62,134 bases of DNA from the NCBI GenBank assembly GCA_964487295.1, contig CAZAQL010000002.1, positions 1 through 62,134 on the forward strand, in the 5' to 3' direction. Under the pieces are notes generated by a model. The model was not told where the DNA came from and searched no databases. It saw nothing but the letters and a program-made list of their open reading frames with translations. Position 1 is the first letter of the stretch. Each line of letters begins with the position of its first letter. Both the position numbers and the translations under genes were made by a program. Source of the DNA: an uncultured bacterium (lineage in GTDB: Bacteria > Joyebacterota > Joyebacteria > Joyebacterales > Joyebacteraceae). This document shows, one piece after another, positions 32,681 to 53,469 of the stretch.

Positions 32681-35110
32681 ATGAACGAGGAACATCACAC
32701 GCCCGCGGGAGAGCGCTCCCGGGCCCCGTCCCCCTCCGTCCGCGCCGGCGCCGGCCGCCGGCCGGCTGCGACAGCGGTGCGCCTTGCCCGCGCGGTCCGC
32801 ACGGCGGCCCTGTCCCTCGGTTTCGCGACGATCGCAGTTCAGACCCTCGTGCTCCGCGAGCTACTCGTCACGTGGCGGGGCGATGAGACGGCCTTCGGCG
32901 TCGCTCTCGCCTCGTGGCTTCTCGCGGCCGCGGCCGGCAGCGCCCTGCTCGGTCCTCGGCTTCGCGGAACCGGCCCGCCCCGCGCGCGCCTCGCCCGCGC
33001 GCTCGCGCTCCTCGGCATCCTCGCCCCGCTCTCGGTGCTGGGGGCGCGTCTCGGACGTCTCGTCCTGGGTCCCGGTTCGGGAGCGCTCGCACGCCCCGCC
33101 GACCATCTGCTGGCGATCGTGATCGCCACCACGCCGTTCGCGCTCGTCGCGGGAGCCTGCTTCGCACTCACGATCCGCGCTCTCGCCGCCGGGACGGCCG
33201 GATCGCGGCGACGGGCCGCTGCCACGGCCTATGCCGTCGAGGCCGCGGGAGCCGTATGCGCAGGCATTCTGCTGAGCTTCGTCCTCATCCCCTTGGTTCC
33301 GCCGGTCGTGGTCGCCGGGATCTGTGCGCTCATCCTCGGCCTGACCGCCATCGCTCTGACGCTCCCGGCCGACGGCGCCCCGGCACCGTCGCGGCGCGCG
33401 AGGCTCGCGGCCCCCGTCTGCTGCGCGGCCGTCGCGCTCCTGACGCTGTCGCCCCTCGGCGCCCGGACCGACCACGCGACGATCGCGGCCCTGTGGGCGG
33501 ACGCCGGATTCGTCGAGGCGCGGGAGTCGGTCTACGGCCGCGTGGTCGCCACGCGCCGCGGGAGCCAGGTCAGCATCTACCAGAGCGGCGTCCTCGCCGC
33601 ATCCGCTCCCGACGCGCTCGCCGCCGAGGAGACCGTGCACGTCCCGATGCTCGCGCACCCTCGACCGCGCAGGGTGCTGCTCGTCGGAGGCGGTCTTGGG
33701 GGCGCGATCGCCGAGGCGCTCAAGCACCCGGACGTAGAACGCATCGACTACGTTGAGCTCGATGGAACGCTCCTCGAGGTGGCTCGCGAGTCGTTCGGCG
33801 GATCGATCGCGGCGGGTCTCGACGACCCGCGCGTGAACGTCCGTCTCGGCGACGCGCGGCTCCTCATCGCCGGTGCGCGGCAGCGGTACGACGTCGTCGT
33901 TCTGAGTGTGCCCGACCCGGTCACGCTGCAGCTCAACCGTTTCTACACGGTCGAGTTCTTTGAGGAGACGCGACGCGTCCTCGCTGAGGGCGGCGTGCTC
34001 GCCCTCTCCGTCTCCGGCGCCGAGAACTACGTGCCTCCGGAGCTTGCCGAACTCCTCGGACTCCTCCGGGACTCGCTTGAGCGGTCCTTCGAGAACGTGA
34101 CGCTCCTCCCCGGAGACCCCTGTCACATACTCGCCTCCGGACCGGCGATGCACGTCCCGCGCGAGGGTCGCGAGTTCGCCCGGCGCGCCGACGAACGCAG
34201 ACTCGGAACGCGCTTCATCGCACGCTACTACCTCGAGGACCGCTTCAGCGAGGCCAGAACGCGAGCCCTTGACGACGCGGTCGCGCGCGCCGAGCCTCGC
34301 GGGCTCAATCGCGACCTCCATCCACTCGGCTTCTTCACCTCTCTCGTCCTCTGGTCCCGTCGGATCGGGTCGTGGGGATCCTGGCTGACCGTGGGGCGCC
34401 GCATCGTGACGCTCCCCGCCTTCGCGGCGGTCGCCGTCGCGATGCTCGTCGCGTTCGGGTTCGCCCCCCGTCTCGCCGCGCGCCTGCGCCGCGCGGGGCG
34501 ACCGGCCGACCGCCCGGCGACGTCCGGCGCCATTCTCCTGTCGATCGCCGTCGTGGGATTCTCGGAGATGGCGCTCGAGGTTGCCGCGATCCACGCGTAC
34601 CAGAGCCTGTACGGTTACGTGTACGGACACCTTGCGCTCATAACCGCGGCGTTCATGGCCGGACTCGCCGGCGGCGGGTGGTTGGGCCGGCGGCTCGCGG
34701 GAGGATCGAGACTCTGGCGCCAGTACGTCGCCGTTCAGGGAGGGATCGTGGTCGTCCCACTCATCTTCGGTCTCTCCATTCGGGCTCTCGCGACATCGGT
34801 CTCCGCCGGGAGCACGTTCTCCGCGGGGCTCTTTCCCGGGATCGTCGCCGGTTCGGCCCTCCTCGCCGGAGTGCAGTTCCCTCTCGCCGCCACGCTTCTC
34901 GCCGAGGACGGCGAACGCAGCGTCACTCGCAAGGGTGGCGCTCTCTACGGGCTCGACCTGGCGGGGGCGGCGGCGGGCGCCGTGCTGTCCTCGCTCCTGA
35001 TGTTCCCCCTGCTCGGGATGTTCCGCTCGATGATGGCGCTGGCCGTGCTGAATGCGAGCGTCGCGCTGACGCTGCTCATGGCCGGAATGAGACGGGGCCG
35101 CCCCCGATGA
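32681..35110 (+). CDS. Fused polytopic membrane / spermidine synthase-like (SpeE-fold) protein
   Basis: The only credible plus-strand gene. TM bundles lie at both the N- and C-termini. The central domain RVLLVGGGLGGAIAEALKHPDVERIDYVELDG...YDVVVLSVPDP...FYTVEFFEETRRVLAEGGVLAL is an aminopropyltransferase/SAM-MTase fold. Confidence 0.8.
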   Translation: MNEEHHTPAGERSRAPSPSVRAGAGRRPAATAVRLARAVRTAALSLGFATIAVQTLVLRELLVTWRGDETAFGVALASWLLAAAAGSALLGPRLRGTGPPRARLARALALLGILAPLSVLGARLGRLVLGPGSGALARPADHLLAIVIATTPFALVAGACFALTIRALAAGTAGSRRRAAATAYAVEAAGAVCAGILLSFVLIPLVPPVVVAGICALILGLTAIALTLPADGAPAPSRRARLAAPVCCAAVALLTLSPLGARTDHATIAALWADAGFVEARESVYGRVVATRRGSQVSIYQSGVLAASAPDALAAEETVHVPMLAHPRPRRVLLVGGGLGGAIAEALKHPDVERIDYVELDGTLLEVARESFGGSIAAGLDDPRVNVRLGDARLLIAGARQRYDVVVLSVPDPVTLQLNRFYTVEFFEETRRVLAEGGVLALSVSGAENYVPPELAELLGLLRDSLERSFENVTLLPGDPCHILASGPAMHVPREGREFARRADERRLGTRFIARYYLEDRFSEARTRALDDAVARAEPRGLNRDLHPLGFFTSLVLWSRRIGSWGSWLTVGRRIVTLPAFAAVAVAMLVAFGFAPRLAARLRRAGRPADRPATSGAILLSIAVVGFSEMALEVAAIHAYQSLYGYVYGHLALITAAFMAGLAGGGWLGRRLAGGSRLWRQYVAVQGGIVVVPLIFGLSIRALATSVSAGSTFSAGLFPGIVAGSALLAGVQFPLAATLLAEDGERSVTRKGGALYGLDLAGAAAGAVLSSLLMFPLLGMFRSMMALAVLNASVALTLLMAGMRRGRPR

Positions 35111-35179: not shown

Positions 35180-36193
35180 TCAGCGATAGAGGGCCTTGAT
35201 CGCTCCCCAGCTGGTCTCCTTGACGGGCGAGACGCAGTCCGAACAGGCTCCCACGCCCAGGCCAGATGTCGCCGCTCCGATGTCGGTCCCTCCCTCGCCT
35301 CCACCGACGTTCGGCGAGGTGAAGCATACCTGGTAGTCGTACCCGACATCACCGATGAAGTCACAGTAGAACGGCTCGGCCGATATGTTCCCGTCCGTCC
35401 CGGTCAGATCCGTCAGACCGCCGCCGTACTGCTCGAACTCCCCGCTGATGTAGTCGTTCCAGTAGACGTTCGAGTACTCCACCGATGCCGTTGCCTGATA
35501 CGTATAGATGCCGGTCTTGTGATTGTGCGTGATCGACGAACTCGAGATCGCGACCGACCCGCCGAAAAGCTTCACGCCGTAGTCGAAGTTCCCGACGATC
35601 GTCACGTGGTCGAGCGTGATCGGACTGGCGCCGTTCATGAAGCTGTACACCCCGTGATGCCCGCCGCGCGCGATGATGGTCTCCTCGACGAGCGGCGCGC
35701 AGTCCGCGCGGCACAGAATGCCCGTCGATGACTCCTCGATCGTCACCTCGCGGATATGCGGAGAGGCGTTGTCGAGACAGCTGATGGCGGCGCGCAGGTC
35801 CCTGCCGTCACCGTCCGACTGAATGCGCTCGCCGACGTCCACGCCGCCGATGATCGTCATGTTGATGATCTTCGCGTCGTTGCCCACGTCGAGACAGAGC
35901 ACCCCGTAGTCGGCCATCGTGTGGTCGATCACCGCATCATCCCGGTCGATCCCCTGCAGGACCACTCCGTCCTTGAGCTCGCAGATGGCCGAGCGCGTGC
36001 CGATCGGCGTCGGGAAGAAGTACACGCTGTCGTAGACGCCCGCGTAGACGAGCACGGTGTCCCCGACATCCGCGAGGTTCATGCCCTGCTGGATCGTCTC
36101 GATGTCGAGATCCTCGTCCGGCACCTCAATGGTGGCGGCTGATCCGGCCGAGGCCAGAAGCCCGACGAAGAGGATCACAAGGAGAGAACGCAT
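35180..36193 (-). CDS. Secreted right-handed parallel beta-helix repeat protein
   Basis: ATG 36193 directly after GAAGGAGGAG. Signal peptide MRSLLVILFVGLLASAGSAA. Beta-helix repeats include IINMTIIGG, IREVTIEES, LVEETIIARGG, LDHVTIVGN and the terminal motif GNISAEPFYCD...DYQVCFTSP. The protein ends ...CSDCVSPVKETSWGAIKALYR. Confidence 0.75.
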   Translation of the reverse strand: MRSLLVILFVGLLASAGSAATIEVPDEDLDIETIQQGMNLADVGDTVLVYAGVYDSVYFFPTPIGTRSAICELKDGVVLQGIDRDDAVIDHTMADYGVLCLDVGNDAKIINMTIIGGVDVGERIQSDGDGRDLRAAISCLDNASPHIREVTIEESSTGILCRADCAPLVEETIIARGGHHGVYSFMNGASPITLDHVTIVGNFDYGVKLFGGSVAISSSSITHNHKTGIYTYQATASVEYSNVYWNDYISGEFEQYGGGLTDLTGTDGNISAEPFYCDFIGDVGYDYQVCFTSPNVGGGEGGTDIGAATSGLGVGACSDCVSPVKETSWGAIKALYR

Positions 36194-36264
36194 CTGCTCC
36201 TCCTTCACGCTGCTGAGAGGTTCGTGGATTCTCCGGTCGCTGAACCAGGATAGACTTCAACTTG

Positions 36265-36355: not shown

Positions 36356-37531
36356 CTATCGCCACACGCCGTCCACAGCGGCGCCGCAGGACGAGCACGC
36401 CCCGTCGGACATACCCAGGACATCAACCGCATAGCCGATGCGGTGGATGAGCAGCTCTCCGCAGGACGGGCAGTACGTGCTGTTCGCCTCGTGGCCCGGC
36501 ACGTTGCCGATGTAGACGTAGCGCAGCCCCTCCTCGCTCGCGATGCGGCGGGCGAGCTCCAGTGTCTCGACGGGGGTCGGCGCCACATCCGTCAGCTGGT
36601 ACTGCGGATGGAAACGCGAGAGGTGCAGCGGGACGTCGGGGCCGAGGTGATCGCGGATCCAGGCGCACATCGCGCGGAGCTCCTCCGGATCGTCGTTCCC
36701 GCCCGGCACGATGAGTGTCGTCAGCTCGAGGTGGATCCGCTCGTCACTCAGAACCTCGAGCGAGCGCAGCACCGGCGCCAGGCTCCCGCCCGTCATCTCA
36801 CGGTAGTACTCCTCGGAGAAACCCTTCAGGTCGATGTTCGCTGCATCGAGGTAGCGGCAGAGCTCTCTGAGCGGCTCCTCCTCGATGAAGCCGTTGGAGT
36901 GGTAGACATTGCGGAGACCGCGTTGGTGGGCGGCGCGCGCGCAATCGAGCATGTACTCGTAGAAGATCGTCGGCTCGGAGTATGTGTACGCGATGCTCGC
37001 GCTCCCGCTTCGGGCCGCGAGCTCGACGAGGTGCTCGGGCGCGAGTTCGTAGTTGAACGTCTGCTCGGGGCGGCTCTGGGAGATGTGCCAGTTCTGACAG
37101 AATCTGCAGTCGAGATTGCAGCCGGCCACGGCGATCGAGAACGCCGTAGTCGTCGGGAGGTAGTGGTAGAACGGTTTCTTCTCTATCGGATCGACGTGCA
37201 CTGCGCACGGGTTGCCGTACGTGAGCGTGTAGTACGTCCCACCGCGGTTCTCCCGAACGCCGCAGAAACCCCGCCCCCCCTCGGGGACGACGCAGCGACG
37301 CGGGCAGAGCGCGCACCGCACAGCGCCGTCCTCGAGCGGCTCCCAGTACATCGCCTCCCGCGGCTCGACGAACCCGTCGGACCCGTCCCCCGGACCCGAG
37401 GTCGCGAGTCCGACGACCCCCAGGACGACGACCGCGAGAGCCAGCGCGAGAAGCGTTGCCGCTCTCCGGCGCACGCGAGGTCCCTCCGGACCCGCCGTCC
37501 CGCTCCCTGACCTCCACGTCCGGTCGATCAC
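36356..37531 (-). CDS. AmmeMemoRadiSam system radical SAM enzyme
   Basis: MYWEPLEDGAVRCALCPRRCVVPEGGRGFCGVRENRGG and the CX3CX2C motif in VAGCNLDCRFCQNWHIS. GTG 37531 (GTGA overlap with the upstream stop) adds RVRRRAATLLALALAVVVLGVVGLATSG. ATG 37351 is the conservative start. Confidence 0.85.
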   Translation of the reverse strand: MIDRTWRSGSGTAGPEGPRVRRRAATLLALALAVVVLGVVGLATSGPGDGSDGFVEPREAMYWEPLEDGAVRCALCPRRCVVPEGGRGFCGVRENRGGTYYTLTYGNPCAVHVDPIEKKPFYHYLPTTTAFSIAVAGCNLDCRFCQNWHISQSRPEQTFNYELAPEHLVELAARSGSASIAYTYSEPTIFYEYMLDCARAAHQRGLRNVYHSNGFIEEEPLRELCRYLDAANIDLKGFSEEYYREMTGGSLAPVLRSLEVLSDERIHLELTTLIVPGGNDDPEELRAMCAWIRDHLGPDVPLHLSRFHPQYQLTDVAPTPVETLELARRIASEEGLRYVYIGNVPGHEANSTYCPSCGELLIHRIGYAVDVLGMSDGACSSCGAAVDGVWR

Positions 37532-39168
37532 CGAAGTCCCAGCTCCTTCTCGCTGAACACCTCCGCCGAGAAACGCTCGATGGCGATGTCCGGGTCGCCC
37601 CACACACCGGGCGGCAACCCGGCCTTGACGCAGGTCTGATCGAGGAAGGTCTCGCGATCCCACCCGCGCTCGGACGCAACCTGGGGAAGCAGCAGCCCGC
37701 TCCTCCCGCGCCCTCTGATCACGAGCCCGTCACGACCGACGACGATCTCCGAGGGATCCTCAACCGGTGAAAGCGGCGACAGGACCGAGATCTCGATCTC
37801 GATGTCCTCGAGTTCGTCCTCCGTCACCGCCGGGAAGCGCGGATCGTGAAGCGCTGCCTGCACGGCCATGTCGGAGACGGTCTCGTGGAGCGGCTTGACG
37901 GCGACGACGTAGCCGATGCAGCCCCTGAGGCGCCCGCGCTTGTCGAGCGTCACGAACCCTCCACACGGCGTGCGGAGCGCCGGCGTCGTCTGCTCGAGCC
38001 GCGGCAGGGCCTCGCCGCGGACGGCCGCCTCCACGGTGGCCCGCGCGAACCTCAGGAGCATCATCCGCTCCTCTCGACCCAGCCCCTCGTACGGCCGTTC
38101 CTGCGGGCTCGAACCGACGCCCGCGTCCTCGCGCGTCTCGCTCGATGCGTCTCCGCCGACGTCGCCGGATGCCTCTTCGCCGGCGTCGCCCGATGCGTCT
38201 CCGCCGACGTCGCCGGAGGTCTCGCCTCCGTCGGCCCCCGAGCGGGTCAGCACGGCCGCCAGGTAACCGACCACCTGGCTCATGTCACCAGATGTGTCGC
38301 CAGAGGTCGCGTAGCGCACCACGTCGCTCCGGTCGGCGCCGAGATGGCGGGAGACCATCATCACGACGGCCATCGGGCCGCCGCCGCACGCCTCGCAGCG
38401 CCCTGCGGCGAGGTCCTCCAGGAGGCCCTCGGGGTCGAACGCCGCGACCCGGTCGATCACGACCTGATCGAGCGCGTTGGCGCGCGCCTGCTCGTGGTAG
38501 TGCGACAGGTCGGTGCTCGCCACGAGCAGCACGCGCCTCGACGAGGACTCGACGGCGCGAGCGATCGCGCCCGCCAGCGCCCGGACCGTGGACTCGCTCT
38601 GATCGCCCATGACGATGGGCACGATGGCAAACTCCCCGAGCGCCCGCTGCAGGAACGGCACCTGGACCTCGAGCGAGTGTTCCTGCGAGTGGGCACCGGC
38701 GCGGCAGGCGAAGGCATCCCCGCTCGCGCGGATCGCGTCCGCCAGCGCGCCGTCGACCGGCACCCTTCCGAGCGGGGTCTCGTAGGCGTCGCCGTCGTAG
38801 ACCGAAGCGCCGCGGAAGGCCGCGCGGTGCGACGGGGCCACGACGATGACCGAGTCGAATGCGTGTCCCGCGACCCGTGCGTAGGCCTCCCCCGCCACGG
38901 CGCCCGAGTAGACATATCCTGCGTGCGGCGCGATGACGGCCACGACCTCGCCCGAGACCCCGGCCGTCTCCGCCGCGTCCAGGTATCCGTCGATGGTCGA
39001 AGCGAGCTGCCCGGGGTCCCCGGGATAGAAGGTCCCGGCGACCACCGGGGTTCTCACGCTCTCATTCCGTGCATCCATCTCGTCCTCGCTTCCTCCGGCA
39101 CACGCGGGAAACGTCGCCGCCGCGAGCAGGATCGCGGCCGCGGCCCACGTCGCTCTCCGTCCCATCAT
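37528..39168 (-). CDS. Fused AmmeMemoRadiSam system protein B (Memo) and protein A (AMMECR1)
   Basis: Start MMGRRATWAAAAILLAAATFPACAGG (ATG 39168). Memo motifs are VAGTFYPGDPGQL and VIAPHAGYVYSG. A D/G/S repeat linker follows. AMMECR1 motifs are CGGFVTLDKRGRLRGCIGY and DPRFPAVTEDELEDIEIEISVLSPL. Confidence 0.85.
   Translation of the reverse strand: MMGRRATWAAAAILLAAATFPACAGGSEDEMDARNESVRTPVVAGTFYPGDPGQLASTIDGYLDAAETAGVSGEVVAVIAPHAGYVYSGAVAGEAYARVAGHAFDSVIVVAPSHRAAFRGASVYDGDAYETPLGRVPVDGALADAIRASGDAFACRAGAHSQEHSLEVQVPFLQRALGEFAIVPIVMGDQSESTVRALAGAIARAVESSSRRVLLVASTDLSHYHEQARANALDQVVIDRVAAFDPEGLLEDLAAGRCEACGGGPMAVVMMVSRHLGADRSDVVRYATSGDTSGDMSQVVGYLAAVLTRSGADGGETSGDVGGDASGDAGEEASGDVGGDASSETREDAGVGSSPQERPYEGLGREERMMLLRFARATVEAAVRGEALPRLEQTTPALRTPCGGFVTLDKRGRLRGCIGYVVAVKPLHETVSDMAVQAALHDPRFPAVTEDELEDIEIEISVLSPLSPVEDPSEIVVGRDGLVIRGRGRSGLLLPQVASERGWDRETFLDQTCVKAGLPPGVWGDPDIAIERFSAEVFSEKELGLR
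38143..38217. repeat. Direct repeat (27-nt core, 48-nt period) in the Memo-AMMECR1 linker
   Basis: cgatgcgtctccgccgacgtcgccgga occurs at 38143-38169 and 38191-38217. It encodes SGDVGGDAS repeats. Confidence 0.8.
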
Positions 39169-39181
39169 GCTCGCTCCCGCG

Positions 39182-40786
39182 TTAGAGCCCGGACCCGCCC
39201 GGGATGACCGTGTCGCGACCGTAGCGCTCATCGTCCCGCTCCGGGTAATCCTCCATGGAATGAAGCCCGCGCGACTCCAGACGGCTGAGCGCGCAGCGGA
39301 TGACGAGTTCCCCGACGAGTGAGATGTTCCGAAGCTCGATGAGATCGGCGTTGACCGGGTAGCGCGTGTGGTAGTCCATGACCTCTCGCCGGATGGCGGC
39401 CATGCGCTCGACGGCGAGCTCAAGCCGGCGCTGCGTTCTCACGATGCCGACGTAGTCCCACATGAGACGACGCACGACGTCCCAGTTGTAGTCGATCAGC
39501 ACGCCCTCGGGCACCGGACCCGCCTCGCGTCCACTCCACTCCTGGTGCTCCGCGCGATCCCGTGCCTCGCGACGCGCGTCGAGCTCGTCGATCGCCGTAC
39601 GCGCCGCGCGTTCGCTGAACACGACGGCCTCCAGAAGCGAGTTGCTCGCCAGTCGGTTCGCGCCGTGCATCCCCGTGTGCGCCGTCTCCCCGCACGCGTA
39701 GAGCCCCGGGAGACTCGTGCGGCACTCCATGTCGATCTCGATGCCGCCGCAGAGATAGTGGGCGGCCGGCACCACCGGTATGGGCTCTTTCGTCATGTCG
39801 ATGCCGAGTTCGAGAAGCCGGCCGGAGATCCCGGGAAAGCGTCGCCGGACCCGGTCCGGCTCGATGTGGGTGATGTCGAGATAGACGTGCTTGTCGCCCG
39901 TCTGTTTCATGGTCCGGTCGATGGCCCTCGCCACGATGTCGCGCGGCGCGAGTTCCTTCCGCGGATCGACCCCCTCCATGATGCGGTCCCCGGAGAGACT
40001 CAGAAGGACGGCCCCCTCGCCGCGGACAGCCTCCGAGATCAGGAAGGAGCGCACCTCCGGATGGTAGAGACACGTCGGATGGAACTGCACGAACTCCATG
40101 TTCCGCACGGCGACGCCGGCCCGAAACGCCATGGCTATGCCGTCCCCGGTGGCGATGTCGGGGTTCGTCGTGTACATGTAGACGCGGCCGCACCCGCCCG
40201 TCGCGAGGACGGTCACGGCGGAGACGAGCGTCCTGACCCTCTCGGCGCGCTCGTCGAGCACGTGGACCCCCACACAGGATCGCCGGGCCCCCTTGCCGGT
40301 CGTGATGAGATCGAGCGCGATGTGGTCTTCGAGAACCTCGACGTTCGGATGGCGGTCGACGGCCTCGAGCAGCGAGGACTCGATCTCCCGACCGGTCATA
40401 TCGGCCGCGTGCACGATGCGGCGCTCCGAGTGTCCTCCCTCGCGACCGAGCGCGAGCTCCGTGCCTCCCGAATCGTCGTCTGCGGTGGTGAACTCGGCGC
40501 CCCACTGCGTGAGTCGCCGGACCGCGTCGGGGCCGCCGCGTACGGCGATCTCGACGGCCTCCCGGTTGCACAGACCGATTCCCGCCGCCATCGTGTCCTC
40601 GATGTGCCGTTCGAAGGAGTCCTCGCGAGCGATGACCGCGGCGATGCCGCCCTGGGCGAGGTTCGTCGCGGACTCCGCGTCGTCCTTCTTCGTGACGACC
40701 AGGACGCGACCGCGCTCCGCCGCATTGAGCGTGAACGTCAGTCCGGCGATGCCGCTGCCGACCACGATAAAATCGTACTGGTCCAC
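39182..40786 (-). CDS. nadB: L-aspartate oxidase
   Basis: MDQYDFIVVGSGIAGLTF (FAD dinucleotide motif), LAQGGIAA, HPTCLYHP, GLYACGETAHTGMHGANRLASNSLLE. Confidence 0.92.
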   Translation of the reverse strand: MDQYDFIVVGSGIAGLTFTLNAAERGRVLVVTKKDDAESATNLAQGGIAAVIAREDSFERHIEDTMAAGIGLCNREAVEIAVRGGPDAVRRLTQWGAEFTTADDDSGGTELALGREGGHSERRIVHAADMTGREIESSLLEAVDRHPNVEVLEDHIALDLITTGKGARRSCVGVHVLDERAERVRTLVSAVTVLATGGCGRVYMYTTNPDIATGDGIAMAFRAGVAVRNMEFVQFHPTCLYHPEVRSFLISEAVRGEGAVLLSLSGDRIMEGVDPRKELAPRDIVARAIDRTMKQTGDKHVYLDITHIEPDRVRRRFPGISGRLLELGIDMTKEPIPVVPAAHYLCGGIEIDMECRTSLPGLYACGETAHTGMHGANRLASNSLLEAVVFSERAARTAIDELDARREARDRAEHQEWSGREAGPVPEGVLIDYNWDVVRRLMWDYVGIVRTQRRLELAVERMAAIRREVMDYHTRYPVNADLIELRNISLVGELVIRCALSRLESRGLHSMEDYPERDDERYGRDTVIPGGSGL

Positions 40787-40823: not shown

Positions 40824-41750
40824 TCACGAGAGCTCGAGCATCCTGTCCAGCGCCCGGCGAGCGCCGGCGAGGACGTCCTCCGGAACGGTCACCTCGTACC
40901 GCTCGTGTTCGAGCGCCCAGGCGAGCCTCGGCAGATCGGTCATCTTCATGTTCCTGCAGACAGCGAACGCCGACAGCGGATAGAAGCTCCGCTCGGGGTA
41001 CTCGCGGTTCATCCGCTCCACCAGCCCGATCTCCGTGCCGACGATCAGCTCTTCGTGTTCCTGAGCGAGTCGCATCATCCCCTCCGTCGACGCGACGTAG
41101 TCCGCCTCCTCCACGACGGCGGGCGGCGATTCTGGGTGAACGACGATCGGCACCCCCGGGTGCTCGCCGCGGGCGAGTTCAACGTCCTCGATGACGAACA
41201 TGTTGTGAACGTAGCAGTGGCCCTGCCAGAGGATGACACGCTTGCCCGTCTTCGACGCGACGTAAGAGCCGAGATTCCTGTCCGGCACGAAGATGACGGT
41301 GTCCGAGTCGAGAGCCTCGACGATCCGCACGGCGTTGGATGAAGTGCAGCATACGTCGCTTAAGGCCTTGACCTCCGCCGACGAATTGACGTAGGTCACG
41401 ACGGGCACGCCGGAGTACTCCTCCTTCATCCTGAGGACCGCGTCCGCCGTCGCCATGTCCGCCATCGGACAGCCGGCGTCCTGCGAGGGGATGATCACGC
41501 GTCTCGTCGGGTTCAGGATCTTCGCGCTCTCGGCCATGAAGCGCACGCCGCAGAGCACGATGAGCTCCGCGTCGGTCTCCGTGGCGAGCTGCGCGAGCCG
41601 GAGCGAGTCACCGAGGTGATCGGCCACGATCTGAACCTTGGGGACCTGGTAGTTGTGGCCGAGGATCACGGCCCGCTTCTCCCTCTTGAGCGTCCTGACG
41701 CGGTCGGACACCTCCTCGACCGGCAGTGCTGCGTACTCCTCAAGCTTCAT
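40824..41750 (-). CDS. nadA: Quinolinate synthase
   Basis: RAVILGHNYQVPKVQIVADHLGDSL, FMAESAKILNP, VTYVNSSAEVKA, and the conserved Cys in AVCRNMKMT. Confidence 0.92.
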   Translation of the reverse strand: MKLEEYAALPVEEVSDRVRTLKREKRAVILGHNYQVPKVQIVADHLGDSLRLAQLATETDAELIVLCGVRFMAESAKILNPTRRVIIPSQDAGCPMADMATADAVLRMKEEYSGVPVVTYVNSSAEVKALSDVCCTSSNAVRIVEALDSDTVIFVPDRNLGSYVASKTGKRVILWQGHCYVHNMFVIEDVELARGEHPGVPIVVHPESPPAVVEEADYVASTEGMMRLAQEHEELIVGTEIGLVERMNREYPERSFYPLSAFAVCRNMKMTDLPRLAWALEHERYEVTVPEDVLAGARRALDRMLELS

Positions 41751-42888
41751 CCCTTTTCCCCCGTGCGAGTGCCTCCGCGAGCGTCTCGCGGACGCAGCGT
41801 TCGCCGCGTGTCACCTCGACGTCGATGCCGACGGCCACCAGGGAGACGCTCGGACGCCATCCCCGAAGACGGACCGCGTCCTTCTCGGTGGTCAGGACGA
41901 CGCTCGCATCGAGTCTCCTGATGTCCGCGTCCAGCCCGGCAATGTCATCGTCGGTGAACTCGTGGTGATCGGCGAACCCTCGAAGACCGACGAGCTCGAA
42001 GCCCAGATCCCGGAGCGACGCCGCGAAGTCCTCGGGGTCAGCGATGCCGGCCACGGCGAGCGCCCGCTCGCCGCGGACATCCGACGCCCGGACCGTGCGC
42101 CCGCTCGAAACATCCCAGAGCTCAGCGAGCCGCATGCGGGTCTCGACCAGGGGCGCTCCGGGCGCAAGAGCGGCGGCGATGCGGCGCACCGAGTCCGCGC
42201 CCCCGCTCCGGTCGCATCGCGTCGCGATGACAAGCCCCGCCCGGGCTATGCCCTGTGGATGCTCCCGGAGCGGTCCGGCGGGAAGCAGGTGGCCGTTGCC
42301 GACCGGCGACCTCGCGTCGACCGCCACGATATCAAGGTCCCGGGCCAGTTGCACATGCTGCAACCCGTCATCAAGCAGTATAACACCAGCTCCGAGCTTG
42401 TCCACCGCGAGCCGGACGCCGTCGGCACGACGCGCCGCCGCGACGACTCCCGCTCCCCGCGCCAGCATCGCCAGGAGAACGGGCTCGTCGCCCGCCTCGC
42501 GCCAGCCGGTCAGAGCGCGCTCTCCGCGCGAGACGATGACGGGAGCCGCGCCCGATCTGCCGTACCCCCGACTCACGATGACGACCCGATGACCGTCCTT
42601 CACCAGCAGCCGCGCCAGGTAGACCACGAGCGGCGTCTTGCCGGTCCCACCGACCACGAGGTTGCCGACCGAGATCACGGGCACGTCGGCGACGACCGCC
42701 CGACTCGCTCGCACGCGCATCACGACGAAGGAGACCACGCCGTAGAGAATCGACGACAGCACGAGGAGCCAGACCGCGTAGAGCCCGGGCGGAGTCACCG
42801 GCCTCCGTCCGTACGCCACGTCTCGCCACCACGCGGCGAGCCGCCGCGACGTGCCCGCGCGGTTACCTGCTTCTCCTCGCCTCGTCAA
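41740..42888 (-). CDS. lpxK: Tetraacyldisaccharide 4'-kinase
   Basis: VISVGNLVVGGTGKTPLVVYLARLL P-loop and VVIVSRGYGR. 11-nt overlap with nadA. Confidence 0.88.
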   Translation of the reverse strand: MTRRGEAGNRAGTSRRLAAWWRDVAYGRRPVTPPGLYAVWLLVLSSILYGVVSFVVMRVRASRAVVADVPVISVGNLVVGGTGKTPLVVYLARLLVKDGHRVVIVSRGYGRSGAAPVIVSRGERALTGWREAGDEPVLLAMLARGAGVVAAARRADGVRLAVDKLGAGVILLDDGLQHVQLARDLDIVAVDARSPVGNGHLLPAGPLREHPQGIARAGLVIATRCDRSGGADSVRRIAAALAPGAPLVETRMRLAELWDVSSGRTVRASDVRGERALAVAGIADPEDFAASLRDLGFELVGLRGFADHHEFTDDDIAGLDADIRRLDASVVLTTEKDAVRLRGWRPSVSLVAVGIDVEVTRGERCVRETLAEALARGKRDEA

Positions 42889-44900
42889 GGAACCTCCCCC
42901 CGCTCCGGGACGCTCCCGGACAGAAGCCCGCGTTCGACGAGCCAGTCCACGGCCCGCGCCGTCGCCCCGCGTCCCTGCGCGACCGTACGGGCCGCGGCGG
43001 ACGCCATGGCGGCCGCGAGCGCATCGTCGGCGAGAATGCCCTCGATCACGGCGCCGAGGTCGCGATCGTCCTCCACGCGCAGAGCGCCGCCTTCGCGCAC
43101 CAGCAGCTCGGCGCTCTCCCGACAGCTCTCAACGTAACGTCCGATGACGACGGGCACGCCGTGCGCTGCGGGCTCGAGCGGGTTGTGCCCGCCGTAATCC
43201 GAGAGAGTGCCCCCGACGAACGCGACCCGCGCGACGGCGTAGACGCGACTCAACTCGCCGGTCGTGTCCAGGAGCACGACCGGCAACCGCTCACCCGCGT
43301 CGCCGGGCGGGAGGGCCGCGGCTGCGCGCCCCGCGCCGCCCGGCCCCTCGGGCAGCTCGCTTCTGCGGAGCGTCGCGAGGCCTGCCCGTCGACACGCCTC
43401 CTCGATGGGAGCGATCCGCGCGAGATGTCGCGGTGCCACGATGACTCGCAGGTCCCCTCGTCGTTCGAGCAGGTCAAGCGTCGCCCGAATGACCGCCGCC
43501 TCCTCACGGGGACGGACGCTCCCGAAAACGACGACGGCCTCCTGTTCGGAGATACCGAGCCGCTGTCGGAGCTCGCTCCGCGCGTCCTCCGACAGCGGCG
43601 GAGAGAGCGCGTCAAACTTCGTGGTGCCGAACGACCTGAGACGCGCGGCCTCGAACCCCAGCCTCTCGAACCTCCCGAGATCGTCCTCCGACTGACAAAC
43701 GACGCCGCTGATGACGTCGGACACCCCGCGAAGCGGGGAGCCGGCCGAGAGGTATCGAGCGAGACTCCGCTCCGAGAGCCGCGCGTTCGCCATGACGACC
43801 GGAACGCCGTGTGCCTCGGCCTCGACAAGCAGGTTCGGCCAGAGCTCCGTCTCGATGAGCACGATGAGACGCGGGTCGCGCGCGGCGAGCGCGCGGCGGA
43901 CGGCGGGTACCAGGTCGAGGGGCGCGAAGGCGACGGGGACGCTCTGCGGAAGGCTCTTCCTCGCGACGGCCACGCCGGCCGGCGTCACGCAGGTCACGAC
44001 CACGCGCTCGCCCCGTGCCTCGAGTTCGCGAACGATCGGCAGCGCGGCCCCGATCTCCCCGACCGAGGCGGCGTGCACCCAGACTCCGCCGCGCGGCTCC
44101 GCCGGATCGACAGCTCCCAGTCTCTCTCGCCACTCCCGACGTCGCGACCGCAGCCACGCCAGGAACGGCCACGAGAGCGCGCCGACGACCCGCGTCGCGA
44201 ACCGGTAGGCCGCGTATGCCGGCCGGCGCGGCTTCGGGGCGCGCACGCGCGCCGCCGCGCGCTCCTCGAGGCGCTTAAGCTCGCGCGTCAGCCGTTCCGC
44301 AGCTGCCTCCATGTCGTCCTGCTCCGACACGTGGAGCGGCTCGCCGTAGAGGATGGCCACCCGGGCGAACGGGCGCGGGACGATGAACCCGTCCCACGAG
44401 GAGAGCCTGCGGAAGGAGCTGGCGGCGGCGGCGATCGGCACGATGGGCCCCCGCGCCCTCGCCGCGAGGAACACGGCCCCGGTCTTGGCGACTCGCGCCG
44501 GACCCTTCGGACCGTCCGGCGTGACGGCGAGATCGAAGCCCGCGCGCGCCCGCGCGATCATCTTCACGACACCGCGGACCGAGCCGCGCGTCGTCGACCC
44601 TCTCTCGACGATGAGTCCGAGCGCCCGCATGACGCGCGCGCTGATCTCGCCGTCACGGTGCCACGACGAGAGCACCACGACGCCTGCGCCGCGATGTGCG
44701 AAGCCGATCGGAAGGATATGAGCGTGCCAGAACGCGAAGACGATCCCGCCCCTCTCGCGCGTCTCCGCCACCGCCCCCCGCCCCTCCCACGTGACGCTCC
44801 ACGTGGCTCCGAGCATCCGCACGAGCAGCGGGCCGACGAACCCGGCGATGGCGGCGAGCACCCGGTCGCCGCGGGTCAGTGGATAGGGTGAGCGACTCAT
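42885..44900 (-). CDS. waaA: Fusion: DUF374 (LPLAT-like) domain + Kdo transferase
   Basis: The N-terminal 210 aa or so (FAFWHAHILP...TPDGPKGPARVAKTGAVFLA) is DUF374. The remainder (VWVHAASVGEIGAALPIVRELEARG...IETELWPNL...GGTLSDYGGHNPLEPAA) is WaaA/KdtA. Confidence 0.85.
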   Translation of the reverse strand: MSRSPYPLTRGDRVLAAIAGFVGPLLVRMLGATWSVTWEGRGAVAETRERGGIVFAFWHAHILPIGFAHRGAGVVVLSSWHRDGEISARVMRALGLIVERGSTTRGSVRGVVKMIARARAGFDLAVTPDGPKGPARVAKTGAVFLAARARGPIVPIAAAASSFRRLSSWDGFIVPRPFARVAILYGEPLHVSEQDDMEAAAERLTRELKRLEERAAARVRAPKPRRPAYAAYRFATRVVGALSWPFLAWLRSRRREWRERLGAVDPAEPRGGVWVHAASVGEIGAALPIVRELEARGERVVVTCVTPAGVAVARKSLPQSVPVAFAPLDLVPAVRRALAARDPRLIVLIETELWPNLLVEAEAHGVPVVMANARLSERSLARYLSAGSPLRGVSDVISGVVCQSEDDLGRFERLGFEAARLRSFGTTKFDALSPPLSEDARSELRQRLGISEQEAVVVFGSVRPREEAAVIRATLDLLERRGDLRVIVAPRHLARIAPIEEACRRAGLATLRRSELPEGPGGAGRAAAALPPGDAGERLPVVLLDTTGELSRVYAVARVAFVGGTLSDYGGHNPLEPAAHGVPVVIGRYVESCRESAELLVREGGALRVEDDRDLGAVIEGILADDALAAAMASAAARTVAQGRGATARAVDWLVERGLLSGSVPERGEVP

Positions 44901-47937: not shown

Positions 47938-49245
47938 CTACCGATCCACGACCTGTGACCAGAACTCACCCTCCGCGGCGACCGCCCCCTTGACGTACGC
48001 GGTCCCGCGCATCTTGCACGTGCCGCCCCGGAGCCGAAGCAGCTCGAGCTCGAATCGGACGGTGTCGCCCGGGAAGACGGGCTTTCTGAACTTCGCATTC
48101 TCGATCGCCCCGAAGTATGCGAGCTTCTCCTCCGCCGGATCGAAGCGCGAGAGGAGGAGGAAGCCGCCGACCTGCGCCATCGCCTCCACGAGCACGACCG
48201 CGGGCACGATCGGATGTCCCGGGAAATGCCCGACGAAGAACCACTCGTTCATGGAGAAGTTCTTCACCCCCACCACGCGGTGGTCATCGAGTTCGAGGAT
48301 CCTGTCGACGAAGAGGAACGGGTAGCGGTGCGGCAGCACCTTCTCGATGTCTCGGATGTCCCAGCTCGTCGTCTCCCTGTAGCGGATCTTGCCCCGCTTG
48401 ATCCCGTCGACCAGGGCCCGAACGAACCGGACGTTCGACGCATGCCCCGATTTCGACGAGTAGATGTGACCCTTGATCGGCATCCCCAGAAGCGCGAGAT
48501 CGCCCATGAGATCGAGGATCTTGTGGCGGACGAACTCGTCGGGGAATCTGAGATCGCCCCGGTTGAGGATGCCGTCGTCGTCCACGACGACGGAGTTCTC
48601 GAGGCTGCCGCCCTTGATGAGCCCCATCTTCTTGAGTCCGTCGATATCGCGCTTGAGCGCGTACGTCCTGGCCGGCGCGATCTCGCGCCGGAAGGTCTCC
48701 TCGGTGATCTTGAAGCTCGCGAACTGGGTGCCGATAGTCGGGTTGTCGTAGTCGATCGTGAAGCTGACCCGGAACGAGTCATCCGGAGAGGCCGCCAGGT
48801 AGACGTCGGAATCCTGCACGGCGACCGGTTCGAGGATCTCCAGATACTGGAGCGGCTCATCCTGGTCCTCGATGCCGGCCTCGGTGAGAATGTCGACGAA
48901 CGGCTTGCAGCTGCCGTCCGTCGGCTCCGCCGGCTCATCGCGGTCGAGCTCGACGAAGACGTTGTCGACACCCACGCCGGAGAGCGCGGCGAGAACGTGC
49001 TCGACGGTGGAGATGTTGACGCCTCGCTTCGAGAGCATGGTCCGGCGCGTCGCGTCGTCCGACGTCACGGCGTTCCGGATCGACGCCTCCAGGGATGGCG
49101 TTCCCGGCAGGTCGACGCGCACGAAGACAACGCCCGTGTTCGCGGGCGCGGGCTTGAACGTGACCGTTGTCTCCTGCCCGGTGTGGATGCCGATACCCTT
49201 GTAGGAGCAGGGCCCGCGGAGCGTGCGCTGCTGGCTTCTCGCCAT
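47938..49245 (-). CDS. lpxC/fabZ: Bifunctional UDP-3-O-acyl-GlcNAc deacetylase / 3-hydroxyacyl-ACP dehydratase
   Basis: LpxC motifs: QRTLRGPCSYKGIGIHTG, TVEHVLAAL, SKSGHASNVRFV. FabZ motifs: LPHRYPFLFVDRILE, FFVGHFPGHPIVPAVVLVEAMAQ. Confidence 0.92.
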   Translation of the reverse strand: MARSQQRTLRGPCSYKGIGIHTGQETTVTFKPAPANTGVVFVRVDLPGTPSLEASIRNAVTSDDATRRTMLSKRGVNISTVEHVLAALSGVGVDNVFVELDRDEPAEPTDGSCKPFVDILTEAGIEDQDEPLQYLEILEPVAVQDSDVYLAASPDDSFRVSFTIDYDNPTIGTQFASFKITEETFRREIAPARTYALKRDIDGLKKMGLIKGGSLENSVVVDDDGILNRGDLRFPDEFVRHKILDLMGDLALLGMPIKGHIYSSKSGHASNVRFVRALVDGIKRGKIRYRETTSWDIRDIEKVLPHRYPFLFVDRILELDDHRVVGVKNFSMNEWFFVGHFPGHPIVPAVVLVEAMAQVGGFLLLSRFDPAEEKLAYFGAIENAKFRKPVFPGDTVRFELELLRLRGGTCKMRGTAYVKGAVAAEGEFWSQVVDR

Positions 49246-50900: not shown

Positions 50901-53339
50901 CTAGTATTCCATGCCGAAGCGGTAGTGGACGCGCCACTCCCCTCCGAGTTCTTCATCGAATCCGTAACCAAGGTCGATCCCCATGTTGCCGAGCATGGGC
51001 ACCTCGACGCGCACGCCCACGCCCGCCCCCCAGTAGAGATCGGTCGGGTGGGTGTCCGCCGCGCTCTCCCAGGTGTTTCCCGCGTCGACGAACCCGAGCA
51101 CGTGGACCGGGATCGTGTCCGGCCCCTCGATGATCGGGAACTTGAGCTCGGCCGAGCCGATCAACACGGTCCGCCCGCCGTAGAGCTCGCTCTCCCCGGG
51201 CAGGATCTCACGGTCCTGGTAGCCGCGCAGCCCGTAGGGCCCGACGCCGCCCAGCTCGAAACGGGTGTCCGTCGGAACCGTGTTCGGATCGCCGTATCCG
51301 GTCACGAGACCTCCGCGTCCCCGGACCATGAAGGTCAGCCCGAGCGGAAGCGGCAGGAACTTGCGAACCTCGAGGATATAGCGCTGGTACTCGACATCGC
51401 CACGGAACGCGCCGCCGAAGAGGTCCGCGGTCGCCCTCGTGTAACTGCCGAGTCGCGGGTGGAATCTCCGGTCGGTCGTGCGCCTGACGAGCGTAACCGT
51501 CAGACCGCTCCGCCATTCCCACTCGTCGTCGGTCCTATCGTACGTGACGGTGTCGTAATCTACATCCCCCGTCGCCGTGTCCTCGATCGCCGTCGTCAAC
51601 TCCCCGTACTCGTGGAGCTTGACCTGCTCGAGCGTGTACTGATTGTAGAGCATCGTGTAGCGCGAGCCGAACAGCGGCCAGCCGACGCGGATGTCGCCGC
51701 CGCGCCTCTCCCGATTGACGATGAAGTGTCGTGTCTGTCCCTCGTCCTCAGACCATATGTCGGAATCGGACGAGTCGGGGAAGACCTCCTGGTAGAAGTC
51801 GTCACCGAGAAGCGTGTAGGTCCGCTTGTCGTCGCGGTCGTAGAGGTCGAACCCGACCGAGAGCCTGCGGTCCATGAACCACGGCTCCGTGAACCCCAGG
51901 ATGAGCTCGGTGTTCCGCTTGCCGAACTCCCACTTGAGGTTCAGATACTGCCCGTTTCCGAAGAGGTTGGCCTCCGCCAGCTCGAGGAAACCGGTGATGC
52001 CCCTCTCGCTCGTGTGCGAGACCCCGACCCCGGCGCGTCCGGTCTGCCGTTCCCGCACGGTGAAGACGAGATCGACGTCGTCCGGGCTCTCGCTGTCGGC
52101 GAACTGCACCATCGGGCCGTCGAAGAAACCGAGATTCGCGACCTTGCGCTGGCTCGAGATGACCTCGGAGGTCTGGTAGAGGTCACCGGGGTGGATGGAG
52201 AGCTCTCGACGGATGACCTTCTCCTTGGTGCGCGTGTTGCCGACGATGTGTATCCGACCGACGCGCGCCGGCTCGCTCTCGTCGACGTTGAAGACCAGCG
52301 CCAGCTCCCGCCCGGAGGAGACGATCTCCTGCTTGACGATCCGGGCATGGATGTAGCCACGCTCCCAGTACCAGGAGTAGGCATCGTCGATGGTCTCGTC
52401 GGCGAGTCCGGGCTCGTACGTATCACCCGGCTCGACCGCGGTCACCTCGGTCAACGCATCCGCGGCGAAGTCCGACACGCCGACCCACTGTACGTCGGTC
52501 ACCGTGTAGAGCTCGCCGAGGTCCAGCTGGACGGTGATGGTGACCCGCTCCCCCTCGTCCTCATAGACGGTCTCGTAGCCTGGAGAGCTCGCATCGATGT
52601 AGCCCCTCGAGCGGACGTGCTCGAGAACCAGCTCGACGTCCGAGGCCAGAACCTCGCGGTCGAAGAAGGCGCTCGTGCGCCACCAGCGATCCTCCTCCGT
52701 CTCCATCAACGCCTTGAGTTCGTCCTCGTCGAAGGGACCGGCGCCCTCGAAGCCGATCCTCCGGACGAGCACGCGGGTTCCCTCCTCGATATCGAAGATG
52801 ACCCGAACGTTGTTGCCGGAGCGGTCCTCGACGCGCGTTTCGACGACAGCGCCCGGAAATCCCTTGCTCTCGTAGAGAGCAAGGACGGCCACCTTCGAAT
52901 CCTCCAGCCGCCCCTCGTCGAAGGGTACGCCGCGCTCGATACTGAGCCGCTCCTCGATATCATCATCGCTCAGCTCGTCGTTGCCGCGGATGTCCACCGA
53001 CGAGACGCGTGGACGCTCCTCAACGACGACGATCAGACGAAGGTCGCCATCCGGCGTCTGCTCACCGAACACCTGGATGTCGGAGAAGTAGCCCAGATCG
53101 TGTAGACGACGAATGCCCTTGCGGATGCCCTCGGTCGTCGGGGCATCCCCCAGCCGCAGACCGAAACCCAGAAGGACTCTGTCGCGGCTCACCAGCTCAT
53201 TGCCCTCGACGACGATCTCGGCGATCCGAGGTCCGTCGAAGGTCTCGACGGCCGCCGACGGCGCTTGCGCGTGCGCCACCGCCCCCCACAACAGGAGGGC
53301 GGAGAACACGGCCGAGCACACCAGACTGCGAATTCGCAC
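50901..53339 (-). CDS. bamA: Outer membrane protein assembly factor BamA
   Basis: GTG 53339, 6 nt after GGAGGT. Signal peptide VRIRSLVCSAVFSALLLWGAVAHAQA. POTRA repeats are followed by a C-terminal beta-barrel ending ...GGEWRVHYRFGMEY. Confidence 0.9.
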   Translation of the reverse strand: MRIRSLVCSAVFSALLLWGAVAHAQAPSAAVETFDGPRIAEIVVEGNELVSRDRVLLGFGLRLGDAPTTEGIRKGIRRLHDLGYFSDIQVFGEQTPDGDLRLIVVVEERPRVSSVDIRGNDELSDDDIEERLSIERGVPFDEGRLEDSKVAVLALYESKGFPGAVVETRVEDRSGNNVRVIFDIEEGTRVLVRRIGFEGAGPFDEDELKALMETEEDRWWRTSAFFDREVLASDVELVLEHVRSRGYIDASSPGYETVYEDEGERVTITVQLDLGELYTVTDVQWVGVSDFAADALTEVTAVEPGDTYEPGLADETIDDAYSWYWERGYIHARIVKQEIVSSGRELALVFNVDESEPARVGRIHIVGNTRTKEKVIRRELSIHPGDLYQTSEVISSQRKVANLGFFDGPMVQFADSESPDDVDLVFTVRERQTGRAGVGVSHTSERGITGFLELAEANLFGNGQYLNLKWEFGKRNTELILGFTEPWFMDRRLSVGFDLYDRDDKRTYTLLGDDFYQEVFPDSSDSDIWSEDEGQTRHFIVNRERRGGDIRVGWPLFGSRYTMLYNQYTLEQVKLHEYGELTTAIEDTATGDVDYDTVTYDRTDDEWEWRSGLTVTLVRRTTDRRFHPRLGSYTRATADLFGGAFRGDVEYQRYILEVRKFLPLPLGLTFMVRGRGGLVTGYGDPNTVPTDTRFELGGVGPYGLRGYQDREILPGESELYGGRTVLIGSAELKFPIIEGPDTIPVHVLGFVDAGNTWESAADTHPTDLYWGAGVGVRVEVPMLGNMGIDLGYGFDEELGGEWRVHYRFGMEY

Positions 53340-53469
53340 TGCTGCACCTCCGTGGGGTATACCGACCCGGCATCGTAGCATACGGCCTGGGGGATGTAAA
53401 CGAAAACTTGGACCCCCAAACCCTTTGAGAGCCAAGCAGTTATGGCTGTTCTGCGATGCCGTCTCGGGG

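Follow-up and report, generated by a model that had tools for sequence, protein, structure and literature searches.

The AmmeMemoRadiSam system is annotated as a set of three proteins, namely a radical S-adenosylmethionine (SAM) enzyme, Memo (protein B) and AMMECR1 (protein A). Both Memo and AMMECR1 have human disease links. In 2019, Burroughs et al. reportedly linked the contexts of Memo to base or isoprenoid modification. Because Fe-S assembly, SAM and a low-potential reductant are all required by radical SAM enzymes, these enzymes are assumed to be cytoplasmic. AMMECR1 has been ranked with the top-priority archaeal families that await characterisation (PMC6393860). In this work, the AmmeMemoRadiSam locus of an uncultured bacterium of the family Joyebacteraceae was analysed in a stretch of 62,134 nucleotides (contig CAZAQL010000002.1 of assembly GCA_964487295.1), which is referred to as the window. 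The window matches all three families above their curated cut-offs, the genes are adjacent on one strand and the cysteine motifs are conserved. The Memo-AMMECR1 fusion and the three-gene system have already been annotated, and no description of an extracytoplasmic form was found in the searched literature. The family model of the radical SAM enzyme (TIGR04337) begins at residue 42 of the window protein, so the model does not include a signal. The window and a large clade of relatives differ from the family as annotated in carrying an export or anchor signal on each of their components. They also exhibit an extra conserved partner, a protein with 14 transmembrane (TM) helices and a SpeE-like domain, that is absent from the loci of signal-less radical SAM enzymes. 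The locus probably encodes an extracytoplasmic, membrane-tethered version of AmmeMemoRadiSam.

In this version, the Memo-AMMECR1 fusion would be exported by a Sec-type signal. The radical SAM enzyme (hereafter rSAM), which resembles the activase of pyruvate formate-lyase (PFL) and is read from GTG 37474, would carry a signal anchor or a long signal peptide and have its catalytic domain outside, with a putative N-in/C-out topology. Both would act with the third component, the 14-TM protein, whose SpeE-like domain would face the periplasm. Radical SAM chemistry would then take place at the outside of the cytoplasmic membrane, and its substrate may be membrane-embedded or part of the envelope. 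The 14-TM partner may supply or handle a SAM-derived cosubstrate, and in other lineages CcdA/NosR/NapH-like modules would give the reducing power. The whole module is placed on the outside of the cytoplasmic membrane because of the export signals, the gain and loss of these signals together, the SAM-fold domain predicted outside and the redox modules that are directed to the periplasm. An envelope-targeted or anchored version had been proposed in the preliminary description of this DNA, and the conserved and co-varying signals, together with matches of distant rSAMs to a model of twin-arginine translocation (Tat) signals, uphold that proposal. The conserved partner at 32681-35110 had been overlooked there. 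The features of the window that are discussed below are as follows.

37528-39168, minus strand: Memo (protein B)-AMMECR1 (protein A) fusion, 546 aa, assigned by TIGR04336, TIGR04335 and Pfam Memo and AMMECR1
39097-39168, minus strand: predicted signal peptide of the fusion (aa 1-24), from the sequence and homologue conservation
38251-39054, minus strand: Memo/LigB-like domain, from TIGR04336 and Pfam
38062-38250, minus strand: D/G/S-rich interdomain linker, from the translation, with a tandem repeat within it (38123-38214)
37555-38061, minus strand: AMMECR1 domain with the LRGCIG motif, from TIGR04335 and Pfam
37528-37531, minus strand: GTGA, in which the fusion stop overlaps an in-frame GTG; a probably unused start, from the closed frame in the relative L001 and the 372-aa database product
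37483-37487, minus strand: GGAGG Shine-Dalgarno site, 8 nt 5' of GTG 37474, from the sequence
36356-37474, minus strand: AmmeMemoRadiSam rSAM enzyme, 372 aa (coordinates include the stop codon), assigned by TIGR04337
37397-37474, minus strand: predicted signal or anchor of the rSAM, consisting of MRRR, a 22-aa hydrophobic helix (aa 5-26) and a G/S/D linker to aa 30
37097-37120, minus strand: CX3CX2C radical SAM cluster motif (Cys119, Cys123, Cys126), from the alignment
32681-35110, plus strand: 809-aa membrane protein, in which a SpeE-like domain stands between two sets of 7 TM helices, from AlphaFold and Pfam Spermine_synth
33494-34405, plus strand: SpeE-like Rossmann domain, predicted periplasmic, from Foldseek and the K/R bias of the loops
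35180-36208, minus strand: secreted right-handed beta-helix (NosD-like) protein, from Pfam Beta_helix; a lineage-specific neighbour

Predicted export signals of the fusion and the rSAM

The preliminary description had placed Memo and AMMECR1 in one 546-aa open reading frame (ORF) with a D/G/S-rich repeat linker and a cognate radical SAM gene next to it, and the profile matches agree with this. The Memo part (aa 39-306) matches TIGR04336 with 298.5 bits against a cut-off of 26, the AMMECR1 part (aa 370-538) matches TIGR04335 with 185 bits against a cut-off of 99, and the rSAM matches TIGR04337 with 399.8 bits against a cut-off of 220. The linker between the two domains is encoded by a 24-nt tandem repeat of 3.8 copies. 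The solved structures closest to the fusion are PH0010/ST0229/MM0484 and MEMO1. The fusion itself is ordinary, as 120/120 best homologues are fused and the JGI name is already 'protein B/protein A'.

The fusion starts at ATG 39168, which is located 13 nt past the nadB stop and 5 nt past a GGAG Shine-Dalgarno site. Its N-terminus is MMGRRATWAAAAILLAAATFPACAGG, which had been described as signal- or lipoprotein-like, and the homologues bear this out. A hydrophobic N-terminal segment is exhibited by 90 of the 111 fusion homologues, 56 of which have a lipobox-like Cys, and the conserved box among them is ..[AS]G-C-[AGS][AD]EGG. Database gene calls start downstream in 20/111 cases. The 'signal-less' call of the relative L087 is a missed GTG start, and its full N-terminus, MKIARITTALLTMVLVAASGTAGC, is a textbook lipoprotein signal. 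The predicted export of the fusion is well supported by these N-termini. In the window, the fusion may be either lipid-anchored at Cys23, with a box that is lipobox-like at most, or cut at an alternative signal peptidase I site (ACA|GG).

The start of the rSAM gene was first placed, tentatively, at GTG 37531, within a GTGA overlap that would couple its translation to that of the fusion. The tetranucleotide (37531-37528) is present and its frame reads ...RVRRRAATLLALALAVVVLGVVGLATSG... before MYWEPLEDG, but neither the coupling nor this start has stood. A GGAGG site (37487-37483) precedes GTG 37474 at 8 nt, and the 372-aa database entry for the rSAM of the window (P0001) matches a start at 37474. 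The corresponding GTGA of L001, the closest relative (79% identity), opens a frame that a stop codon interrupts, and the rSAM gene there begins at an ATG behind GGAGGA to give MRWLGVAAV.... By these marks the start of the rSAM is GTG 37474, with the N-terminus MRRRAATLLALALAVVVLGVVGLATSGPGDGSDG, and GTG 37531 is rejected. The first 19 of the 60 upstream codons are therefore probably untranslated, and the fusion and rSAM genes, which adjoin on the minus strand, are separated by a gap of 53 nt. The downstream ATG 37351 had been named as the other candidate, on the condition that the codons upstream of it were unconserved. This start is excluded because residues 31-41 (G.V.PR.A) are conserved and lie inside the folded core of the AlphaFold model, and because Met42 is unique to the window (1/72 relatives) next to an Ala41 that is found in 72/72.

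The AlphaFold model of the rSAM has a pLDDT of 91.8, and its nearest fold is that of the PFL-activating enzyme (TM-score 0.80). Cys54/57/61/71, Cys119/123/126 of the CX3CX2C motif and Cys335/338/360/363 are invariant in the alignments. Helix 2-25 is detached from the core and is followed by a low-confidence linker (22-28). The N-termini were assessed among the 120 best homologues. All full-length rSAM homologues of the Eisenbacteria-type clade (76/76, at least 65% identity) exhibit an uncharged hydrophobic N-terminal stretch with a mean length of 25 aa, in which the best 10-residue Kyte-Doolittle hydrophobicity averages 3.05. The corresponding value of the window is 3.3 vs 2.1 in the Tat-type clade, and such a long, very hydrophobic region appears typical of a Sec signal or a signal anchor. 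The segment ends with a motif that is conserved in close homologues (G..GLA.GG) and resembles a signal-peptidase site. The alignment of homologues that had been proposed earlier thus finds both the N-terminal extensions and the fusion to be conserved.

High-GC DNA readily encodes Ala/Leu/Val/Gly-rich peptides, and 20/111 gene calls of the fusion begin downstream. Both observations would be expected if the hydrophobic N-termini were GC-rich non-coding DNA read in frame and both proteins started internally and stayed cytoplasmic. Such an artefact is hardly credible here. The segment is kept in 76/76 rSAM and 90/111 fusion homologues, low-GC genomes included. Shine-Dalgarno sites precede the long forms, and the one short call of L087 was explained above. 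The internal Met42 is conserved in 1/72 relatives, and residues 31-41 of the rSAM are part of the fold. As judged from these homologues, the hydrophobic N-termini of the rSAM and the fusion are more than chance.

The distribution of the signals was then surveyed using an rSAM profile against one genome per species. More than 600 matches were obtained, and the best 80 loci were kept. The loci belong to Omnitrophota, Acidobacteriota, Desulfobacterota, Bacteroidota, Zixibacteria, KSB1, Poribacteria, Ignavibacteria, Chloroflexia, an Aenigmatarchaeote and others, and the signal-bearing relatives come from about a dozen phyla. The in-frame sequence 5' of the conserved rSAM core was read at each locus. 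Most of the surveyed rSAMs exhibit a motif of the [ST]RR[DEKR]F[LI]K type, the rSAMs of Omnitrophota have classical Sec-type signal peptides, and 11 loci are without any N-terminal extension. The rSAM clade of 55-62% identity exhibits RRx[FLIVM][LIVMF] in 29/37 members, with a less hydrophobic h-region that is often followed by AxA. The Tat-signal model TIGR01409 scored above its cut-off of 16.7 bits in four of the eight rSAM N-termini tested (L033, 22.3; L045, 25.5; L028, 17.9; L011, 25.5), and three others were just under the cut-off (13.4-15.8 bits). The rSAMs of Bacteroidota (L042-L085) have a motif that is perfect except for a K-R where R-R is expected, [ST]KR[DE]F[IL]K, and the one that was tested (L054) obtained no TIGR01409 score. 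The Tat-motif rSAM in the metagenome-assembled genome (MAG) of the Aenigmatarchaeote (L045) also matches the Rieske Tat-signal family UCR_Fe-S_N, and a SpeE-like membrane protein is adjacent to it. With this archaeal locus, diderm bacteria are not the only carriers of the module.

Memo and AMMECR1 are nearly always fused in the surveyed loci and exhibit N-termini of the Sec or lipoprotein type, and the rSAM adjoins the fusion in 46/85 related loci. The signals of both proteins co-vary. Among 42 scorable loci from many phyla, a signal is found on both the rSAM and protein B in 36, on neither in four and on protein B alone in two, and no locus has it on the rSAM alone (Fisher p = 1.3e-4, a value which, like the p-values given below, overstates independence because the genomes are related and the assignments were partly made by eye).

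The membrane partner and the redox neighbours

The partner gene (32681-35110, plus strand) is convergent to the system genes in the window and belongs to the annotation class 'fused MFS/spermidine synthase'. In Bacteroidota and Desulfobacterota, the partner gene is located between the fusion and rSAM genes on the same strand. A full-length homologue directly adjoins the rSAM in 45/72 signal-bearing loci vs 0/11 signal-less loci (p = 7e-5). Unsupervised clustering of the ORFs of 85 loci gave only three widely shared families, which are the rSAM (80), the Spm-like partner (48) and the Memo-AMMECR1 proteins (46). Two paralogues of the rSAM, one of the anchor type and one of the Tat type, are present together at one locus (L005 6001-13203). 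This locus also carries a CcdA, two SpeE-like membrane proteins and a signal-bearing Memo without AMMECR1.

The AlphaFold model of the partner (pLDDT 91.4, pTM 0.92) exhibits seven long helices, a complete SpeE fold and further helices. The partner matches PF01564 (Spermine_synth) with 94 bits, and Foldseek gave its soluble domain a TM-score of about 0.75 to SpeE structures (E = 2e-13 to 1UIR). The Foldseek search for the fold of the TM part scored the SpeE domain alone. The mean number of K/R per loop among 46 homologues is 3.7/2.0/1.4/2.1 and 1.0/3.6/2.5/1.6 for the loops predicted inside, vs 1.0/1.5/0 and 0.07/0.24/0.02 for the loops predicted outside. From this pattern, both termini are predicted inside and the SpeE-like domain is predicted outside. 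The parity of the N-terminal half, with seven helices after an Arg-rich N-terminus, would be the firmer part of this sidedness.

The ribose-binding Glu, the adenine-binding Asp and an NRFYT.EFF motif are conserved in the partner homologues. The acid of the GGG(D/E)G motif is absent in 46/46 homologues, and the first Asp of DxxDP is mostly replaced by Asn or Ser. The window protein has GGGLGG, without the gatekeeper acid, and SVPDP, without that first Asp. We take these two residues in SpeE to select decarboxylated SAM (dcSAM) and to deprotonate the amine. A canonical dcSAM-dependent aminopropyltransferase is unlikely from this set of residues. The partner is not described here as a spermidine synthase because the catalytic acids are absent and the adenosyl-binding residues are kept, and the domain is better called a predicted outward-facing adenosyl/SAM-binding domain. 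A 1066-aa protein that matches both Radical_SAM and Spermine_synth (P0343, L090 5001-8201) was considered as a true fusion of rSAM and partner and was set aside, as its N-terminus and junction are garbled and it is probably a long-read frameshift artefact.

CcdA, NosR and NapH-type modules hand reducing equivalents to periplasmic acceptors. A CcdA/DsbD-type gene is adjacent in 12/16 loci with a non-Tat rSAM vs 0/56 loci with a Tat-like rSAM (p = 1e-10). Three of these genes encode DsbD_2+FMN_bind+Fer4_5 fusions of about 560 aa (L012 5069-6814, L021 1744-3435 and L024 5075-6742) that adjoin rSAMs with Sec- or anchor-type N-termini, and plain CcdA-type genes are found in nine more such loci. The operon of Planctomycetota (L088 7001-12788; L089) has a Fer4_5 (NapH/NosR-like) module fused to the C-terminus of the SpeE-like protein (1008 aa), followed by a Tat-signal rSAM (DRRRFVRR) and then by an N-terminally anchored Memo-AMMECR1. 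A DUF362 gene of about 340 aa is located directly 5' of the rSAM gene in nine loci (L022, L023, L028, L029, L031, L049, L052, L057 and L058), and such neighbours recur in Acidobacteriota, Zixibacteria, KSB1 and Poribacteria. The DUF362 protein of L052 at least has a Tat-like N-terminus (LNRREALLK...), and the copy at L090 4044-4913 starts with MGKGFV... without a Tat-like motif. These redox neighbours fit an rSAM that would need reduced cysteines and electrons outside the cytoplasm.

Alternatively, the N-terminal sequences may have no export role and be relics or regulatory elements that dock chaperones or associate with the membrane, and the whole system may work at its inner face. A precedent for such a peptide is the vestigial Tat motif of NarG, and the problems of SAM, reductant and Fe-S supply would all be avoided. 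We nevertheless regard this as very doubtful. The fusion partners have ordinary Sec or lipoprotein signals with a conserved lipobox Cys, and an AxA cleavage site closes many of the rSAM signals. An outside position is predicted for the SpeE-like domain, and CcdA and FMN_bind/NosR-like modules are adjacent to the system.

Sidedness of the rSAM and setting of the locus

The placement of the rSAM domain outside the membrane has to be weighed against several points. Sec export delivers an unfolded apoprotein. We know of no periplasmic Fe-S assembly pathway, and SAM together with a low-potential reductant outside the cytoplasm would be unprecedented to our knowledge. The N-terminus of the window rSAM matches neither TIGR01409 nor PF10518 despite its RRR, and TIGR01409 also gave no match for another Eisenbacterial rSAM. 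Close relatives have RR in 23/76 cases only and a Tat-like motif in 3/76. A twin-Arg followed by a hydrophobic helix had been reported for this enzyme; the arginines and the helix are indeed there, and a Tat signal on the rSAM of the window itself is rejected on the two models. The box of the window fusion is F-P-A-C, with non-canonical residues at positions -3 and -2 relative to the lipobox [LVI][ASTVI][GAS]-C, and a Pro replaces the Cys in L001, the nearest relative. A tblastn search of the window found no CcdA/DsbD homologue, and no CcdA- or NosR-type gene was seen near the system there. The partner helix 745-802 was modelled as a single long helix, so hydropathy is the basis on which seven TM helices are counted for the C-terminal half. 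The signals were scored by hydrophobicity, motifs, two hidden Markov models (HMMs) and conservation. The query of the survey was built from exported-type sequences, its loci are not phylogenetically independent and several of their classes were assigned by eye. The supply of SAM by the partner is purely our inference.

The main difficulty among these is the non-Tat N-terminus of the window rSAM, since the enzyme would have to cross the membrane unfolded. A split topology thus becomes the main rival. In it, the rSAM core would be cytoplasmic and tethered (N-out/C-in), and only the fusion lipoprotein and the SpeE-like domain would be outside. The inner and outer parts would take turns on a membrane-embedded substrate, for instance a lipid or polyprenyl intermediate that is flipped or held by the 14-TM partner. 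Fe-S assembly, SAM and reductants are available in the cytoplasm, and all known exported Fe-S proteins use Tat. The helix of the Eisenbacteria-type rSAMs is long and very hydrophobic, is usually without RR and has no Tat HMM match, and neither the window nor L001, L007 and L087 have an adjacent CcdA- or NosR-like gene. We consider this arrangement unlikely, though it deserves to be taken seriously. The charge bias around the anchor favours N-in/C-out, as MRRR precedes the helix and the next 15 residues have one K/R vs four D/E. The cleavable Tat or classical Sec signals of the sister clades cannot keep the domain inside. The G..GLA.GG end of the helix resembles a signal-peptidase site, and the signals of the rSAM and the fusion co-vary.

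The extracytoplasmic reading may extend beyond the window. We tentatively suggest that a widespread clade of PFL-activase-like rSAMs works outside the cytoplasm with a secreted Memo-AMMECR1, with the 14-TM SpeE-like partner exporting or handling SAM or a cosubstrate derived from it and with electrons via lineage-specific CcdA/NosR/NapH-like modules, although the case for the whole clade is possible rather than probable. This clade spans Eisenbacteria-type bacteria, Omnitrophota, Acidobacteriota, Desulfobacterota, Bacteroidota, Planctomycetota and at least one archaeon. If this is true, the Fe-S clusters of the non-Tat lineages, including that of the window, would have to be acquired after Sec export.

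The preliminary description had taken the setting of the locus as the end of a lipid A operon. The minus-strand run consists of bamA (50901-53435), lpxD, lpxC-fabZ, lpxA, a GFO-family oxidoreductase gene, lpxB, kdtA (42885-44900), lpxK (41740-42888), nadA (40824-41750) and nadB (39182-40786). The fusion gene, the rSAM gene and the beta-helix gene follow nadB on the same strand. Beyond the gene of the 809-aa membrane protein, the minus strand has heptosyltransferases, an MsbA-like ATP-binding cassette (ABC) transporter, an O-antigen ligase, Wzz and further envelope genes. A scan for terminators between the genes found none.

The system is thus flanked by lipid A genes on one side and by lipopolysaccharide (LPS) and O-antigen genes on the other, and the same holds for L001, L007 and L087. 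A system that modifies lipid A or LPS would account for this setting. However, we regard that role as improbable. The genes nadA and nadB separate lpxK from the system. Synteny with lpx, kdtA and nadAB among about 85 loci is found only in the three Eisenbacteria-type relatives, and outside this lineage an lpx gene is nearby in only one of about 80 loci (one lpxK in L079). The module is also found in the Aenigmatarchaeote (L045), in a Chloroflexia MAG (L026) and in many phyla with unrelated neighbours, and only the Spm-like protein and the redox modules are widely conserved as neighbours. Co-occurrence with lpx genes as a general trait was rejected, as it is confined to one lineage, and the lipid A operon does not serve as a general clue. 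The LPS embedding is a local hint and not a property of the system. In the Eisenbacteria-type lineage, an envelope lipid or glycolipid as the substrate is a reasonable local guess.

The beta-helix gene is syntenic 3' of the rSAM gene only in the Eisenbacteria-type L001, L007 and L087. A promoter-like site (36293-36265) is located ahead of this gene, and the C-terminal tail of its protein is ...SWGAIKALYR. The match of this protein to NosD is marginal (24.6 bits vs a cut-off of 23.6). It could be a substrate of the system or a metallochaperone-like helper.

Other features of the window were also observed. KdtA has an N-terminal extension of about 225 aa, and L087 has a separate DUF374 gene at that position. 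LpxC (47938-49245, minus strand) forms a fusion with a FabA/FabZ-like domain. The lpxK stop and the nadA start overlap by 11 nt. The 868-aa ORF next to bamA (53470-56076, minus strand) is without a Pfam match. The 658-aa ORF (60157-62133, minus strand) has TRAM and ATP:guanido phosphotransferase (McsB-like) domains and adjoins a ClpC-like ATPase.

Comparison with known systems

The nearest solved structure to the rSAM is PflA (PDB 3CB8 and 3C8F), with E = 8.5e-10 and the TM-score given above obtained over about 250 residues. Both proteins have the same partial TIM-barrel radical SAM core. The window rSAM differs from PflA in having an additional Cys4 motif at the N-terminus, a CX2C...CX2C ribbon at the C-terminus and the N-terminal membrane or signal segment. 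Glycyl-radical activase models gave at best 55-61 bits on the rSAM, below their cut-offs of 131-250, and no glycyl-radical enzyme partner was found in the neighbourhood in the window.

The partner shares the full SpeE fold with SpeE and with the membrane-fused SpeE proteins (PRK03612; NF037959). It differs from them in that its domain is located between two 7-TM halves, is predicted outside and has its catalytic acids missing.

The canonical [ST]RRxF[LI]K signals of the distant rSAM relatives are shared with the Tat-exported Fe-S proteins, such as Rieske proteins, NapG and the small subunits of hydrogenases. The Tat route would allow these relatives to be exported with their clusters pre-inserted, and the N-terminus of the window rSAM differs from theirs in missing the Tat models. 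No radical SAM enzyme was found among the Tat substrates described in the searched literature. The same literature gave no exported, Tat-signal or periplasmic radical SAM enzyme and no signal-bearing Memo or AMMECR1, though Burroughs et al. 2019 might mention such forms.

The maturation set of nitrous-oxide reductase (NosR, NosD and NosL), which services a metalloenzyme of the periplasm, is analogous to the system through the FMN_bind+Fer4_5 proteins, the NosD-like beta-helix protein and the lipoprotein partner. The likeness is in domain types only, as there is no NosZ and the NosD match is marginal.

If the module is indeed extracytoplasmic, radical chemistry would extend to the cell envelope, and the question would arise of how SAM, electrons and Fe-S clusters get to the periplasm. 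The module would also offer a new approach to what Memo and AMMECR1 do, since the substrate should be accessible outside the membrane and three to five genes would have to be reconstituted. A link between radical SAM chemistry and the periplasm is shared with the HXS antiphage system, where the effector HxsA, and not the rSAM enzyme, carries a signal peptide and reaches the periplasm (PMC13128918). The system of the window differs from HXS in that the predicted signal is on the rSAM enzyme itself.

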